A stretch of 64,000 nucleotides of DNA. Source: Promethearchaeota archaeon (GTDB lineage: Archaea > Asgardarchaeota > Lokiarchaeia > Sigyniarchaeales > SOKP01). A program made the position numbers and the translations under genes. Below the pieces are notes generated by a model that was not told the DNA's origin, searched no databases, and saw only the letters and a list, made by a program, of their open reading frames with translations. This document shows, piece after piece, positions 4,016-38,236 of this stretch; position 1 is the first letter of the stretch; every line of letters begins with the position of its first letter. Where the stretch lies: NCBI GenBank assembly GCA_019058365.1, contig JAHPZE010000002.1, positions 256,001-320,000 of the forward strand, written 5' to 3'.

Positions 4016-4119
4016 TGGGCCAGGCAGGATTCGAACCTGCGACCTTGGGTTTAATGGATACATCCATTAAAAATCCCAGTCCGAAGCCGGGCACCCTATC
4101 CAGGCTAGATTACAGGCCC
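4016..4119 (-). tRNA. tRNA-Arg(TCG) with a 29-nt non-canonical intron in the variable region (4044-4072)
   Basis: The reverse complement folds as acceptor GGGCCTG/CTGGCCC, anticodon arm CCCGG-CTTCGGA-CTGGG and T arm GCAGG-TTCGAAT-CCTGC. The insert forms a BHB-like motif whose excision leaves a 5-nt variable loop ATGTC. Confidence 0.9.
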
Positions 4120-32166: not shown

Positions 32167-32586
32167 TTAATGAAAAAGTACTTTTAGACCTAATTCTTTG
32201 TATAATAAATTTAGATTTAATTCAAATTGCCCTCTAACAATATCATAATGAGTGAATTTACCTTTTTTAAAACTTCTTATAAGCCCAACACTTTCAAGAA
32301 TTCGAAGATGATGTGATATAGATGGTTGTGATTTATCTAAGATTGCTTCTAGTTCGCAAACGCAATGATCATTTTCCTTTAATACAGTAATTATCTTTAA
32401 ACGCTCCTTATTTCCTAATGCATAACAAAATTGTGTTAATTTCTTAAAATTATCTTCGTTTTCTAAATTAATTCCGAAATCTTGCAAATCGTGGAAGTAT
32501 GTCTTAACATCTATTTCACTCATATCAACGCAGCCTTCCAGGGAATCCATTATTTCAATAGCACGTCTTCTATTAATAATATTCAC
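32167..32586 (-). CDS. arsR: ArsR/SmtB transcriptional repressor
   Basis: ALGNKERLKII, HCVCEL and SQPSISHHLRIL motifs; divergent from acr3. Confidence 0.88.
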   Translation of the reverse strand: MNIINRRRAIEIMDSLEGCVDMSEIDVKTYFHDLQDFGINLENEDNFKKLTQFCYALGNKERLKIITVLKENDHCVCELEAILDKSQPSISHHLRILESVGLIRSFKKGKFTHYDIVRGQFELNLNLLYKELGLKVLFH

Positions 32587-32782: not shown

Positions 32783-33838
32783 ATGAGTATTTCAGAAACA
32801 GAAGAAATTTCAATAACAAATAAAGATGAATCAAAAAAACTCGGTTTATTCGAAAAATTACTTCCTCTATGGGTAGCACTATGCATTTTCATAGGAATTC
32901 TCTTTTCCATATATATCCCAGGTATAAGTCAAACTATGAATACATTTACCATTGGTCAAATTTCATTACCGATTGGTATTTGTTTATTCCTAATGATGTA
33001 TCCTGCAATGTTAAATTTACAAGTCTCAGAGTTAAAAAAATTAAGTAAAAATCCTAAACCTATAATTTTAACAATTCTATCTAATTGGGTGATCGCCCCT
33101 TTTGTAGGTTTGCTTATGGCACGTATCTTTCTACATGGATATGAGCAATTAATTGTCGCTGTTATTTTATTAAGCTCAAGTCCATGTACTGCTATGGTAT
33201 TAGTCTGGGGATGGATGGCAAAAGGAAATCAAGAACAGAATGTGGTAAATACGAGCCTTAATACAATAACTATAATATTTGGATATGCTCCTATGGTTAC
33301 ATTATTAACAGGTATTCAGAATATTCCCATTGATTGGAAACCCCTAGTTTTATCAACGTTTGTCTTTATTGGACTTCCATTATTGCTTGGAATAATTAGT
33401 AAAAGGTTATTAATATCTACCAAAGGTAAAGAGTGGTTTAACAATACATATCGACCTATAGTTGGAAATGTATCGATTGTTGCTCTACTCACAACATTAG
33501 TGGTTCTTTTCTCTATGAATGGAGAAGTCTTAAGTGATAATCCGGATCTTTTATTATTAGTATCAATTCCCCTATTGCTTGGATTTGTAATTGTTGTTGG
33601 ATACAACATTTTAGTTACGAAAGTATTTAAACTAAAATACAAGGAAGCTATAATCACAGTTATCATCGGGTCTTCCAGTCATTTCGAAATTGCGATAGCA
33701 ACTGCTATTGCAATATATGGGATAGGATCTATTGCTGCTTTAGGTACTACAATGGGGTTATTCTGGGAGGTTCCAGTTATGCTTTCAATTGTCTATTTAG
33801 GTAGGTGGCTAAGAAAAAGAAGTTTTTGGAAGTCCTAG
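32783..33838 (+). CDS. acr3: Acr3 arsenite efflux transporter
   Basis: MMYP, NWVIAP, PCTAMVLVW, SHFEIAIA and EVPVML motifs. Confidence 0.93.
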   Translation: MSISETEEISITNKDESKKLGLFEKLLPLWVALCIFIGILFSIYIPGISQTMNTFTIGQISLPIGICLFLMMYPAMLNLQVSELKKLSKNPKPIILTILSNWVIAPFVGLLMARIFLHGYEQLIVAVILLSSSPCTAMVLVWGWMAKGNQEQNVVNTSLNTITIIFGYAPMVTLLTGIQNIPIDWKPLVLSTFVFIGLPLLLGIISKRLLISTKGKEWFNNTYRPIVGNVSIVALLTTLVVLFSMNGEVLSDNPDLLLLVSIPLLLGFVIVVGYNILVTKVFKLKYKEAIITVIIGSSSHFEIAIATAIAIYGIGSIAALGTTMGLFWEVPVMLSIVYLGRWLRKRSFWKS

Positions 33839-33926
33839 TATTTTTGATTTTGAAATAAAATATCAATTAAAGAATAAAAATCTTGAAAAATTAAAATGAA
33901 TAAAATAAATTTCGGGTGTAATAAAA

Positions 33927-34205
33927 ATTAGTGAAGAAAATTCAGAAAAATTAAAAGTTGATATTTATGTCCCATTAGATGCTTGTTCGTGTGAATGGGA
34001 TAAATTTATGAATCGAGTATTTGTTGAACTAACACCTTATATAAAATATATTGATTATGATACTAAGAATCTAAATTCAGAGGAAGCTAGGGAACTCAAT
34101 CTTTACAATAAATGTGTAGTTGTAGATGGACAGAAAAAATTTTCGTCCTCTTTTACACTTAAAAAGGAATTACCGAACCTTCTTAAGGCTAAAGGATTTA
34201 TTTAG
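33927..34205 (+). CDS. Small thioredoxin/ArsD-like protein with a CxC motif; start codon probably non-canonical
   Basis: The frame is open from 33909, so it extends upstream of the ATG at 34008: SEENSEKLKVDIYVPLDACSCEWDKFMNRV... The only start candidates there are ATA (33921) or ATT (33927) after a GGGTG Shine-Dalgarno-like motif. Confidence 0.6.
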   Translation: MSEENSEKLKVDIYVPLDACSCEWDKFMNRVFVELTPYIKYIDYDTKNLNSEEARELNLYNKCVVVDGQKKFSSSFTLKKELPNLLKAKGFI

Positions 34206-34238: not shown

Positions 34239-34715
34239 GTGAGTATAAAAATTAAAAAAATTAAGTTAACGGTTTTTGCTCCAGATCCCGAAAAGAAATT
34301 ATCTAATGGTCTTGATTTCAATTTAAAAGTTGCTGATGATGGCTCGATTATCGATGTCTTAAGCAATCTAGATAAATATTTTTACGATAATCCTGAAAAC
34401 TCCATTTTCCCTATCTATAAAGGACTAATACACAGTTATCTTCAGCTCATATGGGATCCTGAAACGAATTTAATTTATGATGATTGTGCTGTAAACGCTT
34501 ACGGACCAAATAAAGAATTCATGCCATTACATGAAGATATAAATTTTACTTTATATCCTGATAGTGAAATAACAATAGTAGTCCATGCTGATTGATGAGC
34601 TGATGTTATGAAAGAACGATTGGATTATGGCACATTCAAACGGATTTTATTGAAAACTTATGGAAAAAACCACGAAACTTTTGCTCATTATTTTAAAGAT
34701 AAAAGAAATAACTAA
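34239..34715 (+). CDS. Ubiquitin-like (beta-grasp) putative selenoprotein A with tandem UGA-UGA (34593-34598); 158 aa with read-through
   Basis: In-frame TGA TGA followed by a 38-codon tail homologous to the tail of paralog B, then a SECIS-like hairpin. Confidence 0.72.
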
Positions 34716-34718
34716 TAG

Positions 34719-34778
34719 GTTGAATGATGCCTTTCAAAAAATAATTGTGAAAGGTTGACAATAGGATTGCTTCCTATA
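34719..34778 (+). promoter_or_regulatory. Eukaryote-like SECIS element (AUGA...AA...GA) plus a second small hairpin
   Basis: ATGA-T-GCCTTTCA-AAAAATAATTG-TGAAAGGT-T-GA, then ATAGGA-TTGCT-TCCTAT. Confidence 0.72.
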
Positions 34779-34832
34779 AATATAAATTTTAATCGAATTG
34801 TATAAATAAGCTGTCTTATTTTTAAAACATAT

Positions 34833-35831
34833 ATGGACTTTTTCACACATATGTTTATGGGGGTTTTAGCGGGTCTATTTTCATTAACCAAGTTAAGTCC
34901 AGAAGCTATTATCCTTATGTGGATTATGACCTTTTTACCAGATTTCGATGTCTTCTTAGGGCCACTCCAAAAAATAAGAAAAGCGTATTTTCTTTCGCAT
35001 AAAGCTGGTTCTCATTCTTATATTATAGGATTTATTTTTACTGGAATTGTTAGTTTTTTTATATCTATATTTAGAAATGTTTTATTCATTGAGGTCTGGT
35101 TTGCTGGATTCATAGGATATAGTATCCATGTCTCATTAGATTTTTTTGCTGCTTCAAAAATACCAATTTTTTATCCAATCTCGAAAAGAGAATATAGATT
35201 AATTGCTGATAGAGCTGTTAATCCAATATTGATGATTTTTTCTTGTATAAATCTTCTGGTTTTAATAGCATTTTATTTTACATTACCTTATTATCAAATA
35301 CTTATGAACCTTGCTTTCTTTTATCTGTTTGTTTATCTAATATATTTTGTGATTAGAGCTTTTTTAAGAACTATAATACAGCTGAAAATTCCTAGAAATC
35401 AGAAATATATTCCTGGTCTTCTTCCATTTTACTATTTCATTTATGAAAAAATTTTGGATAATGAATCTACCACTTTTAATTTAAAAAAAAAATTTGTATT
35501 TTCATCTAAAAAACAAGATTTAATAAATCAAACAATTTCAAATGTTTCAGATGAATTCACCTTTTTTGAATTAGCTAAGCAAATTAGTCAAGAGTACAGA
35601 TTTTATCATAAATGGAATTATGTTCTTCCTTTTATTCATGAAAATAAGGATTCAGTTAATGTTGTTTTGATCTTAGCTGAAAGTTTTTCACAATCTCTCC
35701 GGCATAAATCAATTAAACGAGAAATGTCCTCTTATTATATCTCAATTCTTTTTGATAAAAGTTCAAAACAAGTAATTTCAAAAACTGAAGGATTTGGTTC
35801 TTTTAAGAAATGGGAAAACAAAGATTGGTAA
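34833..35831 (+). CDS. YdjM-like membrane metal-dependent hydrolase
   Basis: MDFFTH, LPDFD, HKAGSHS and HVSLD motifs. Confidence 0.85.
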   Translation: MDFFTHMFMGVLAGLFSLTKLSPEAIILMWIMTFLPDFDVFLGPLQKIRKAYFLSHKAGSHSYIIGFIFTGIVSFFISIFRNVLFIEVWFAGFIGYSIHVSLDFFAASKIPIFYPISKREYRLIADRAVNPILMIFSCINLLVLIAFYFTLPYYQILMNLAFFYLFVYLIYFVIRAFLRTIIQLKIPRNQKYIPGLLPFYYFIYEKILDNESTTFNLKKKFVFSSKKQDLINQTISNVSDEFTFFELAKQISQEYRFYHKWNYVLPFIHENKDSVNVVLILAESFSQSLRHKSIKREMSSYYISILFDKSSKQVISKTEGFGSFKKWENKDW

Positions 35832-35928
35832 AATCAATGTTAATAATAATTTCTATTTAATAATGAAGATAAATGTCATTTTTCTAACAATATTTTAATT
35901 ATTTTGCATAAATATTATTTACTTAGAA

Positions 35929-35994
35929 TTTTCTTCAACATTCACACTAAAGAAAGAATTACCCAAACTTCTTAAAGCTAAAGGACTTATTTAA
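35929..35994 (+). pseudogene. C-terminal remnant of the CxC thioredoxin/ArsD-like gene
   Basis: FSSTFTLKKELPKLLKAKGLI* matches FSSSFTLKKELPNLLKAKGFI* at 34140-34205. Confidence 0.8.
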
Positions 35995-36027
35995 AATTTA
36001 GATATTTGATTTGAAATCTTAATAGGG

Positions 36028-36504
36028 GTGATTATTAAAATTAAAAAGATTACTTTTAAAATTAGTATACCTTCAATGGATTTACAAAAAGGCAAAGCAT
36101 TTATTGTACAAGTAAAAGATGATGCTACTTTTGTTGAAGCTTTAGCAATGGTAGATAAATATATTTTTGAAAATCCGCATGAATCGATATTTCCAATATA
36201 TGAAGGTTATATTCATAATTATTTACAGTTGTTTTGGGACCCAGAACATAATATAATCTATGAAGATGTTGGGATAATGCCTTATGGTCCTGATGAAGAG
36301 GGTAATTTGAGAAGTTTTATGCCAATTCGAGATAATTTAGATTTCAACTTATTTCCTAACAGTGTTATAGATCTACAACCAGATTCTGGATGTTGATGAG
36401 AAAAAGTGAGAACTCGGTTAGATATAGGTAAATTTAAATCTATTTTAAGAGAAAAATTTGGAAAATATAATAAGGTTTTTGATCATTATTTTAAATCTAA
36501 ATAA
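36028..36504 (+). CDS. Ubiquitin-like (beta-grasp) putative selenoprotein B, GC-UU motif (TGA TGA at 36394-36399); 158 aa with read-through
   Basis: Paralog of the gene at 34239; 34-codon conserved tail after TGA TGA, then a SECIS-like hairpin. Confidence 0.72.
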
Positions 36505-36510
36505 TATAGA

Positions 36511-36570
36511 ATTGAATGAGATCTTTTAGAAAATATTAGTAGAAGATTGACATTAGGAGAGCTTCCTATA
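36511..36570 (+). promoter_or_regulatory. Eukaryote-like SECIS element (AUGA...AA...GA) plus a second small hairpin
   Basis: ATGA-G-ATCTTTTA-GAAAATATTAG-TAGAAGAT-T-GA, then TAGGA-GAGCT-TCCTA. Same geometry as the element at 34719. Confidence 0.72.
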
Positions 36571-36660
36571 TATTCTATTAAAAAAATAACTAAAAATACA
36601 ATAAATTTTTACTCTTTCAATCTAATTTTCTTCTATCATAATTTCTTTTAAAGCTTAAAG

Positions 36661-38070
36661 ATGGAAAAAGTCAAATTTAAAGAAATAAGAAAATCACATA
36701 AAGGCATCACTAAGCTTTCTTATGAAGTTACTCAAATTTTAGGAAATGATCCGAATAGATCTCCGTTATATTCTTTATTATATGTAATAAATAAGGAAGA
36801 AAATACTAAAGAAGAAATTTATAGCTATTTTAAATATTTCTATGTTAATGAATTTGCTAATATTAGGCTAAAACAACCTGAATTAGATGATTTATTATTA
36901 GATGGAATTACTAAAACTTTAATTCAAAAACAAAACAATACTTATTCTTTAACTGAAAAAGGAAATGAAGTTTTAACTAAATGCAAAACAGTTAATTTAG
37001 TCACAAATAAAGCGTTAGGATTCTTTTTTAGTGAAAAAGTTGTTTTAATTTTCTCTTTAATTTGCTTAATTTTTATGAGTTCACTTAAAATAATTGTTGG
37101 ATTGAATGCAGGCAGTGATGCGTTATTTAACGAGGGTATTGAGAATTTTACAGATATAATAAAGATATTTATAATTACTTTAAGTATTAAATTGGGGAAA
37201 GATAGGTTAGGGGCAATCGCAATCATTATTTTAATGTTGATAACAGGAATAAATTTGATAATAGCTTCGGTATTTTCAATTTTTCAAACCGATATTATTT
37301 CTCCATCATATTTTACGTTTATATTAATGTTTATCTCGATTTTACTAAACTTAATGTTGTTAGTTCTAAAAAATTTCGTTGGAAAATTACAAGCCAATTT
37401 TGCATTACTCTCCGATGCTAAAGATAATGTAATTAATATTAGATTATCATTAGGAGTAATAATTGGACTAATTTTTGCATTATTTGGAATTTATTGGGTA
37501 GATTCTATTGTTGGTATAGTAATTGCTAGTTTAATTATATTTGACGGGTTAGAGACACTACTAGCATTAATCAAATCTGGTGAGGATATTGATATTGACA
37601 GCTTTAAATTAAGCTTAGATAAAGCCTTTGAATTTAAAATTGCACATTGGATATTAGTGGTTATTGAAGAAGAAAGGCTTTCCATTCACCAATTAAATGA
37701 GAAATTTAATGAGTCTATTAACAAGGGATATGAAATTTTTGGTATTTGGGCAATATTTGGACTTTCTAGTATTGAAACATTTAGCATTCAATATATTTTA
37801 AACCTTATGAAAAAAAGAGGTTTATTTTTTGAACAGGATAATAAAATATATCTTACTGATAAGGGGAAAAAGCAATATAATAATGCTTTATCTCAAGAAT
37901 TAAAGAGAGTTTCAAAAGATAAGAAAAAATATAAAGATTGGAAACCTCCAAGCACGATAGTAAGAGTTTTATGGTGTATTTTTGGAATTCTCACTCCAAT
38001 TATCTTAATCATATTAACAATTTTTGTTGGACCAATTATTTATAATTTTATAATTGATTTAATTGGATGA
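36661..38070 (+). CDS. Cation diffusion facilitator-like transporter with flanking winged-helix domains
   Basis: CDF TM core (SDALFNEG, WVDSIVGIVIA); wHTH wings YSLTEKG and IYLTDKG. Confidence 0.7.
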   Translation: MEKVKFKEIRKSHKGITKLSYEVTQILGNDPNRSPLYSLLYVINKEENTKEEIYSYFKYFYVNEFANIRLKQPELDDLLLDGITKTLIQKQNNTYSLTEKGNEVLTKCKTVNLVTNKALGFFFSEKVVLIFSLICLIFMSSLKIIVGLNAGSDALFNEGIENFTDIIKIFIITLSIKLGKDRLGAIAIIILMLITGINLIIASVFSIFQTDIISPSYFTFILMFISILLNLMLLVLKNFVGKLQANFALLSDAKDNVINIRLSLGVIIGLIFALFGIYWVDSIVGIVIASLIIFDGLETLLALIKSGEDIDIDSFKLSLDKAFEFKIAHWILVVIEEERLSIHQLNEKFNESINKGYEIFGIWAIFGLSSIETFSIQYILNLMKKRGLFFEQDNKIYLTDKGKKQYNNALSQELKRVSKDKKKYKDWKPPSTIVRVLWCIFGILTPIILIILTIFVGPIIYNFIIDLIG

Positions 38071-38080
38071 AAGAATAGGT

Positions 38081-38236
38081 ATGCTAGATAATAATGTGAT
38101 TTCAAAAGTAAAGAAGTTTGCTCTTGATAACTTTGCCAAAGATGATATTTATGGTTTCATACATGTTGAACGCGTCCTAAATTTATATATTCAGTTAGGA
38201 ACCACTTTTTTTCACTTTAAATTAAGAAATAGTTAA
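38081..38236 (+). pseudogene. Truncated 5' copy of the HD-domain gene
   Basis: MLDNNVISKVKKFALDNFAKDDIYGFIHVERVLNLYIQLG matches the first 40 aa of the gene at 43079, then diverges and stops. Confidence 0.8.

Follow-up and report, generated by a model that had tools for sequence, protein, structure and literature searches.

Introduction

Selenocysteine insertion sequence (SECIS) elements of eukaryotic type have already been published for Asgard archaea (PMC4989117, PMC11227280). In the available text of Mariotti et al. 2016 (PMC4989117), lokiSECIS is described as an AUGA, a 9-bp stem, an 11-nt loop and a GA (AA in VhuU) lying close to the stop codon, and the first five bases of the loop favour A while the last one is an ultraconserved G. 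According to the available text of Huang et al. 2024 (PMC11227280), the segments around the key regions have no highly conserved nucleotides, and no SBP2 is reported in Asgard archaea in the available text of either paper. A further motif of relevance is the k-junction of the thiamine pyrophosphate (TPP) riboswitch (Wang et al. 2014, PMC4005666), in which a kink-turn (K-turn) is made into a three-way junction by a helix in the non-bulged strand that is coaxial on the C helix. Here we analyze two SECIS elements, SECIS 1 and SECIS 2, in a 64,000-nt stretch of a Promethearchaeota archaeon genome (assembly GCA_019058365.1, contig JAHPZE010000002.1, positions 256,001–320,000 of the forward strand), which we refer to as the window and by which coordinates are given. 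Each element follows a gene with two consecutive in-frame UGA codons and bears an additional 3′ hairpin, referred to as P3. Judging from sequence comparison, both are probably working type I lokiSECIS elements with a K-turn core, each directing insertion of two adjacent selenocysteine (Sec) residues at UGA-UGA, and P3 would be an integral third arm of the element rather than an accessory of these two genes.

Results

SECIS elements of the window and their orthologues

The two Sec-Sec genes, UU1 and UU2, and the elements that follow them are arranged as below.

34239–34715, plus strand: gene UU1, 158 aa, Sec-Sec motif HAD-UU-AD, TGA-TGA at 34593–34598, stop TAA at 34713–34715 followed by TAG
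34720–34777, plus strand: SECIS 1, no helix I above chance
34720–34722 (UUG) with 34759–34761 (CAA): C stem of SECIS 1
34723–34725: AAU bulge of the putative K-turn of SECIS 1
34724–34727: AUGA of SECIS 1
34726–34727 with GA at 34757–34758: core G.A/A.G of SECIS 1
34728–34736 with 34748–34756: helix II of SECIS 1
34737–34747: 11-nt apical loop of SECIS 1
34762–34776: P3 hairpin of SECIS 1, UAGGA-UUGCU-UCCUA, loop UUGCU at 34767–34771
36028–36504, plus strand: gene UU2, paralogue of UU1, motif GC-UU-E, TGA-TGA at 36394–36399, stop TAA at 36502–36504
36506–36578, plus strand: SECIS 2, predicted three-way junction
36506–36512 (AUAGAAU) with 36572–36578 (AUUCUAU): helix I of SECIS 2
36513–36514 with 36551–36552: C stem of SECIS 2
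36515–36517: AAU bulge of SECIS 2
36516–36519: AUGA of SECIS 2
36518–36519 with GA at 36549–36550: core of SECIS 2
36520–36528 with 36540–36548: helix II of SECIS 2
36529–36539: apical loop of SECIS 2
36554–36568: P3 hairpin of SECIS 2, UAGGA-GAGCU-UCCUA, loop GAGCU at 36559–36563

Sequence reading and an alignment of both regions confirmed the two elements, and the positions, motif layout and stem changes given in the initial annotation were exact on recount. The RNAs are about 80% identical; helix II has 8 of 9 pairs in SECIS 1, where the first one is U.U, and 9 of 9 in SECIS 2. Two pairs of the 8-bp stems have changed from C-G to U-A with full compensation, and two others have changed on one side only, in a way that wobble pairing tolerates. 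RNAfold predicted the helix II hairpin and P3 in both elements, and for SECIS 2 the minimum free energy structure also has an enclosing outer helix; the z-scores of −1.9 and −1.4 are unremarkable (genomic G+C content, 29.5%). A pattern search over the whole genome returned these two copies only, and the reversed-pattern control gave 0 matches. Each element starts 5–8 nt past the stop codon of its UGA-UGA gene, and the distance from UGA-UGA to the element is 131 nt for the first gene and 122 nt for the second.

Two sequences alone prove little about structural selection, for which the initial annotation had argued on the basis of this pair; stronger support comes from covariation among 51 elements, namely the two of the window and 49 orthologous ones. 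In a MAFFT alignment that was not fitted to structure, 93% of cells pair compared with 87% in shuffles, of which 0 of 500 reached the observed value, and sliding the partner strand reduced pairing to 43–57%. Changes on both sides occur at 5 of the 9 helix II pairs and at 3 of the 5 P3 pairs. AUGA is present in 51/51 elements, positions 3–5 of the apical loop are A and its last position is G in 51/51, and the 3′ side of the stem continues with GA in 45 elements, including both of the window, and AA in 6. The bulge is AAU in 35 and GAU in 16 elements, with the tandem GA facing GA or AA; the pair next to the bulge (−1b/−1n) is G-C in 51/51, and the second C-stem pair shows five standard pair types. 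The distance from UGA to AUGA ranges from 119 to 135 nt in the family (mode, 131 nt).

Regarding helix I, pairing between the flanks in the UU family is no longer than in shuffles (5.5 versus 5.4 bp) except in the clade of SECIS 2, whose helix I is kept in the orthologues at loci L057 and L060. In SECIS 1 and most orthologues, P3 and the C stem are thus the sole helices below the K-turn. Pairing of the 5′ flank AAUAGG of SECIS 1 with the 3′ arm of P3 as a eukaryote-like helix I was also considered and rejected, since this flank is not conserved in the orthologues.

A covariance model built from the UU family alone, R1, scored SECIS 1 at 91.5 bits, SECIS 2 at 76.4 bits, two HdrA 3′ ends at 53–54 bits and a VhuD 3′ end at 36 bits. 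Such a model had been suggested as a check in the initial annotation, and its matches indeed extend to 3′ ends of selenoprotein genes (multi-Sec HdrA and two-Sec VhuD), i.e. to genes with in-frame UGA followed by SECIS-like RNA, so that the refuting outcome named there did not occur. None of the Rfam SECIS families reached its gathering score on either window element, and none matched at E ≤ 10; standard models missed lokiSECIS as well, according to the available text of PMC4989117. As R1 was too sequence-specific for the VhuD elements of other genomes, cores and hairpins there were instead parsed by scripts with decoy and shuffle controls.

Anatomy and distribution of P3

P3 has a stem of 4–6 bp and a loop of about 5 nt, one base of which is an invariant G that usually belongs to a GC. 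The hairpin starts 2–5 nt after the GA/AA of the core, directly past the C-stem strand on the non-bulged side, the C stem itself being 2–4 bp long. In the UU family the P3 stem pairs in 96% of cells and the loop reads N-U-G-Y-N, in which G is found in 51/51 and the next base is C in 41 elements. The hairpin as such is present in 51/51 elements compared with 21% of shuffles, and a GC loop in 41/51 compared with 1.9%. The initial annotation had described it as a conserved hairpin outside the canonical eukaryotic SECIS, and this holds for the whole family and for other SECIS elements as well.

In this genome, a strict scan gave six elements of lokiSECIS format, R1 added a seventh, and two SelD genes carry type II elements. 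P3 was found in 9/9 of these, that is, in 7/7 besides the window pair (HdrA/VhuD and SelD), with GC in 8/9 loops (e.g. UUGCU, GAGCU, UUGCA, GUGCA, and UGC-containing loops in SelD). When P3 was defined objectively by a stem of at least 4 bp and a loop of 4–7 nt containing GC, starting within 8 nt, 6 of the 7 type I elements had it compared with 5 among the genome's 323 decoy cores of that format (1.5%). The survey of other genomes covered VhuD and SelD elements. Among 25 VhuD orthologues from 25 genomes, AUGG-NNGCN-CCAT stands at the same place in 25/25 (shuffles, 1.4%), and in VhuD of other families within the order or phylum P3 is present in 16/17 cases (shuffles, 9.4%); loops there, such as UGCGA, CGCAA, GGCAA and UGCAA, consist of N followed by GCAA or GCGA, which are GNRA-like. 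P3 is also found in SelD elements of four families.

The strongest argument that P3 as such is selected is that its stem sequence differs wholly between gene families (UAGGA, AACCCA, AUGG, CCCC, GUCC, CCAC and others), but the hairpin keeps both its place and the G(C) in its loop. In addition, in the VhuD, HdrA, SelD and SECIS 2 types a helix I of 5–7 bp pairs the 5′ flank with the sequence past P3; since this helix encloses P3, these types are predicted to form a three-way junction. When families were compared by eye, the P3 loop and the apical loop were not seen to covary, and hence a base-paired kissing contact is unsupported.

P3 might instead be a separate 3′-end element, such as a terminator, processing or mRNA-stability hairpin, standing beside SECIS because both end transcripts. 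We consider this unlikely. P3 does sit in 3′ untranslated regions (UTRs), and a run of at least five T follows within 45 nt in 21/51 UU elements, but such runs are inconsistent, occurring in 3/25 VhuD elements and absent in 22/25, and no terminator-like site was found; for these reasons an intrinsic terminator was rejected, and plain stabilization of the transcript, one of the roles offered in the initial annotation, is improbable as well. Moreover, the spacing between P3 and the K-turn is fixed at 2–5 nt, the hairpin lies inside helix I and thus within the SECIS fold in the four types mentioned above, and comparable hairpins are rare at decoy cores. The other role offered there, an adaptation of P3 for decoding two consecutive UGAs, has in its favour that P3 was first noticed after two UGA-UGA genes, but it is very improbable given that the same hairpin is found at the same position after the cores of SelD with its single UGA and of HdrA and VhuD with widely spaced UGAs, in several families. 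On these comparisons P3 is a real and conserved hairpin that is not special to consecutive UGAs.

Coding of the Sec-Sec family

The frames of UU1 and UU2, whose products are 44% identical, remain open through 158 aa only when TGA-TGA is read through (translation with TGA as U). No Pfam or NCBIfam family matched the UU proteins. More than 160 Asgard homologues were found in metagenome-assembled genomes (MAGs), nearly all annotated as 118-aa hypothetical proteins that end at the first TGA, and a few annotated with WW at the Sec-Sec site, i.e. with TGA read as Trp. TGA-TGA was found in every parsable gene of 55 related loci taken from genome records, and TGATGA is invariant in 51/51 aligned genes, never replaced by another stop. 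The entropies at the three codon positions of these genes were 0.82, 0.74 and 1.14 bits after TGATGA compared with 0.85, 0.72 and 1.20 bits before it, with third positions the most variable on both sides and near-invariant residues downstream. Because this variability mirrors that of the upstream part, the 38 codons past TGATGA are, by their substitution pattern, translated. Although gene callers end the proteins at 118 aa and Rfam SECIS families do not match, it is scarcely credible, in view of this coding-type substitution pattern with near-invariant residues after the UGAs, the constancy of TGATGA in 51 genes, the same RNA after known selenoprotein genes and the Sec machinery of the genome, that TGATGA is a genuine double stop followed by 38 untranslated codons and by K-turn regulatory sites unrelated to Sec.

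The UU family is, by sequence, a widespread Lokiarchaeial family with an invariant predicted Sec-Sec pair (HAD-UU-AD or GC-UU-E). The families of Asgard selenoproteins named in the available text of PMC11227280 (seven families, 2024) or of a 2026 review (PMC13188914) do not include it. In distant homologues the place of GC-UU is taken by a single Cys (GC-ITE), which may be why searches for Sec/Cys pairs overlooked the family. A confident AlphaFold2 model of UU1 (predicted local distance difference test score, 88) gave weak matches to beta-grasp proteins such as Urm1 and, from Haloferax, a ubiquitin-like protein (E about 0.004, template modelling score 0.4–0.5). In the predicted fold the final strand leads directly into Sec-Sec, and a helical tail comes next.

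Sec machinery and other selenoprotein genes of the genome

The genome encodes aSelB with the archaeal domain III (aSelB_III), SepSecS and two SelD genes, each with one in-frame TGA (Sec-containing), as well as two L7Ae-family genes. No VhuU selenoprotein was found in the genome, whose hydrogenase large subunit carries Cys.

Some further observations were made around these genes. Directly downstream of SepSecS, with aSelB about 5 kb upstream, lies a 226-aa open reading frame (ORF) without Pfam match (C34:24707-25387 of the same genome; L136:7707-8384). This ORF may correspond to a hypothetical protein, confined to Asgard, that Huang et al. 2024 located close to genes of the Sec machinery, and is thus a candidate SECIS-binding factor. 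Another locus (C16:344000-347200, L004) holds an HdrA gene, a 678-aa frame with two in-frame UGAs that ends 14 nt before its own SECIS; there is no separate VhuD downstream, unlike in the HdrA-VhuD pairs of the literature. Within the window, a 104-nt Rfam tRNA match on the minus strand (4016–4119) is overlong for a plain tRNA and probably contains an intron; over the whole genome, aragorn counted 12 tRNAs without intron mode and 31 with it.

Genomic context of the UU genes

The genes preceding UU1 are as follows.

32167–32586, minus strand: ArsR-type regulator (HTH_metalloreg)
32783–33838, plus strand: ACR3 arsenite efflux gene (TIGR00832 acr3, 283.7 bits)
33909–34205, plus strand: 98-aa ORF without assigned family, directly upstream of UU1

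Among the 55 related loci, the small ORF is a neighbour in 45, ACR3 in 29 and ArsR in 28. From this usual place after the 98-aa ORF, ACR3 and ArsR, an arsenic-related role of the UU genes would be a reasonable lead. Upstream of UU2, positions 35899–35994 hold a short remnant of the 98-aa ORF that precedes UU1 (…SSTFTLKKELPKLLKAKGLI, then a stop); therefore, the cassette of small ORF, Sec-Sec gene and SECIS appears to have been duplicated, with the second copy of the small ORF truncated.

The spacer between SECIS 1 and a gene for a YdjM-like membrane protein (34833–35831), at positions 34779–34832, holds …AAATTTTAATCGAATTGTATAAATAAGCTG…, a stretch that is near-unchanged in many related loci (e.g. 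L007, L011, L013, L020, L029 and L056) and is probably the promoter of the YdjM-like gene, with a TATA-like box. The gene that follows SECIS 2 at 36661–38091 encodes a protein of the cation-efflux (CDF) type that begins with a winged-helix domain at its N terminus, and the frame runs 6 codons past the TGA at 38068–38070; this TGA is most likely a plain, real stop. Two related contigs with Sec-Sec gene and SECIS (L033 and L034; DATKTW010000069.1 and DATKTW010000027.1) come from a MAG labelled ‘Candidatus Nanopelagicaceae bacterium’, probably owing to a binning or labelling error.

Discussion

Taken together, the format and position of the elements, their covariation, the coding signal, the Sec machinery and the recurrence of P3 indicate that both window elements are probably working type I lokiSECIS elements in which P3 is an integral arm. 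Several points weigh against this reading and have to be set beside it. What is said here of Sec insertion, of the K-turn fold, of coaxial stacking and of P3 contacts is deduced from sequence. The orthologues are kin, so that the shuffle controls overstate significance. The GC of the P3 loop is replaced by GU in 10/51 UU elements, and one SECIS of the genome has a P3 loop (GGUGA) without GC. The P3 stem never varies in the VhuD clade, which consequently provides no covariation for P3, and at several VhuD and SelD loci of other families our simple parser found no core, leaving P3 unscored. No tRNA-Sec was identified by aragorn, run by default, with introns allowed or with a relaxed threshold (many false positives only), nor by Rfam RF01852 over the genome or an Rfam scan of the Sec-machinery locus; we treat this as a limit of the tools rather than as absence. 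Finally, the novelty of P3 is judged against the text of PMC4989117 and PMC11227280 apart from their figures and supplements, where P3 may be drawn undiscussed. The available texts of these two papers and of PMC13188914 mention no third hairpin or junction, and full-text literature searches (SECIS with three-way junction; lokiSECIS) returned no mention of either.

If both are working SECIS elements with P3 as a third arm, they might act as follows. As established for SECIS elements in general, the RNA would recruit the Sec-specific elongation factor to the ribosome at UGA-UGA. The core would be a canonical K-turn, composed of the UUG/CAA C stem, an R-A-U bulge, tandem G.A/A.G and the 9-bp helix II, on top of which an 11-nt loop runs from initial As to a final G. 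P3 would stack on the very short C stem and thereby fix the kink, standing in for helix I, which is lacking in most members of the UU family, and taking over its task at places too close to the stop codon for it to fit. The G(C) loop of P3, often GNRA-like, and the G-C pairs of its stem, which are striking in so A+T-rich a genome, could then act as a second surface for recognition or make a tertiary contact; the partner might be an archaeal SECIS-binding factor, aSelB, or else helix II or the A-rich loop, which the kink would bring close.

A bolder and more tentative extension of this model would make P3 a third arm that is both ancestral and obligatory in the Asgard SECIS. The K-turn would set helix II beside the stack of C stem and P3, the P3 loop and G-C pairs would serve as a tertiary lock on helix II or the A-rich loop or as a docking site for an archaeal SECIS-binding factor, and eukaryotes would later have swapped this arm for a long helix I and SBP2. 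We find this possible, though doubtful as a whole.

To our knowledge, no SECIS-binding protein has been identified in archaea. Asgard SECIS elements are used as a bridge to the eukaryotic system, and a third helix with a conserved loop beside the K-turn in almost every element examined leads to a three-way-junction picture of them. With mutants and RNA baits, P3 offers a concrete handle on the missing factor; it would be a defined bait for this factor if the ancestral-arm proposal is true. It could also improve predictions of SECIS elements and of selenoproteins in Asgard genomes, as the two elements here serve a widespread Sec-Sec family of arsenic-resistance loci that homology-based surveys have not listed.

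Compared with known systems, the window elements share with eukaryotic SECIS (Rfam SECIS_1 and relatives) the non-Watson-Crick AUGA/GA core, unpaired As in the loop, the location in the 3′ UTR and action at a distance. They differ in having a shorter helix II and, instead of the larger internal loop and long helix I, a 3-nt bulge and a short C stem; SECIS 2 has a helix I of 7 bp, but it encloses the extra hairpin, and P3 has no eukaryotic counterpart. The euryarchaeal SECIS (Methanococcales) likewise lies in the 3′ UTR, and its VhuD versions also carry AUGA…GA according to the available text of PMC4989117, whereas its GAA_A bulge and the G-C run of its upper stem are absent from the window elements by sequence reading. 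At the sequence level, the elements also resemble simple K-turns (of Kt-7 and box C/D type, to which proteins of the L7Ae family bind) in the C stem, 3-nt bulge and tandem G.A/A.G, to which SECIS 1 adds a following U.U as in box C/D K-turns; here, however, the putative K-turn is part of an mRNA 3′ UTR and is joined by a third helix.

The nearest described motif is the k-junction, where the third helix is also in the non-bulged strand. The k-junction insertion sits directly opposite the bulge loop, whereas P3 comes after a C stem of 2–4 bp, sometimes with 2-nt linkers, and for this reason we do not file the elements as k-junctions; the coaxial stacking of the k-junction has a predicted counterpart here. 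The closest relative as a functional element is lokiSECIS, or Asgard type I: both window elements and their 49 orthologues have the AUGA, stem, loop and GA/AA in stop-proximal format and follow a gene that contains in-frame UGA, and likewise one element serves several UGAs; the genome of the window elements has Sec machinery. Since this format is found and the Rfam SECIS families are unmatched, we assign them to the published Asgard type and not to the eukaryotic families. They extend that type in two respects: the genes served belong to a Sec-Sec family outside the listed Asgard families, and, where the published text confines its model to core, upper stem and loop, a third hairpin with a conserved G(C) in its loop accompanies these parts in nearly all elements examined here.

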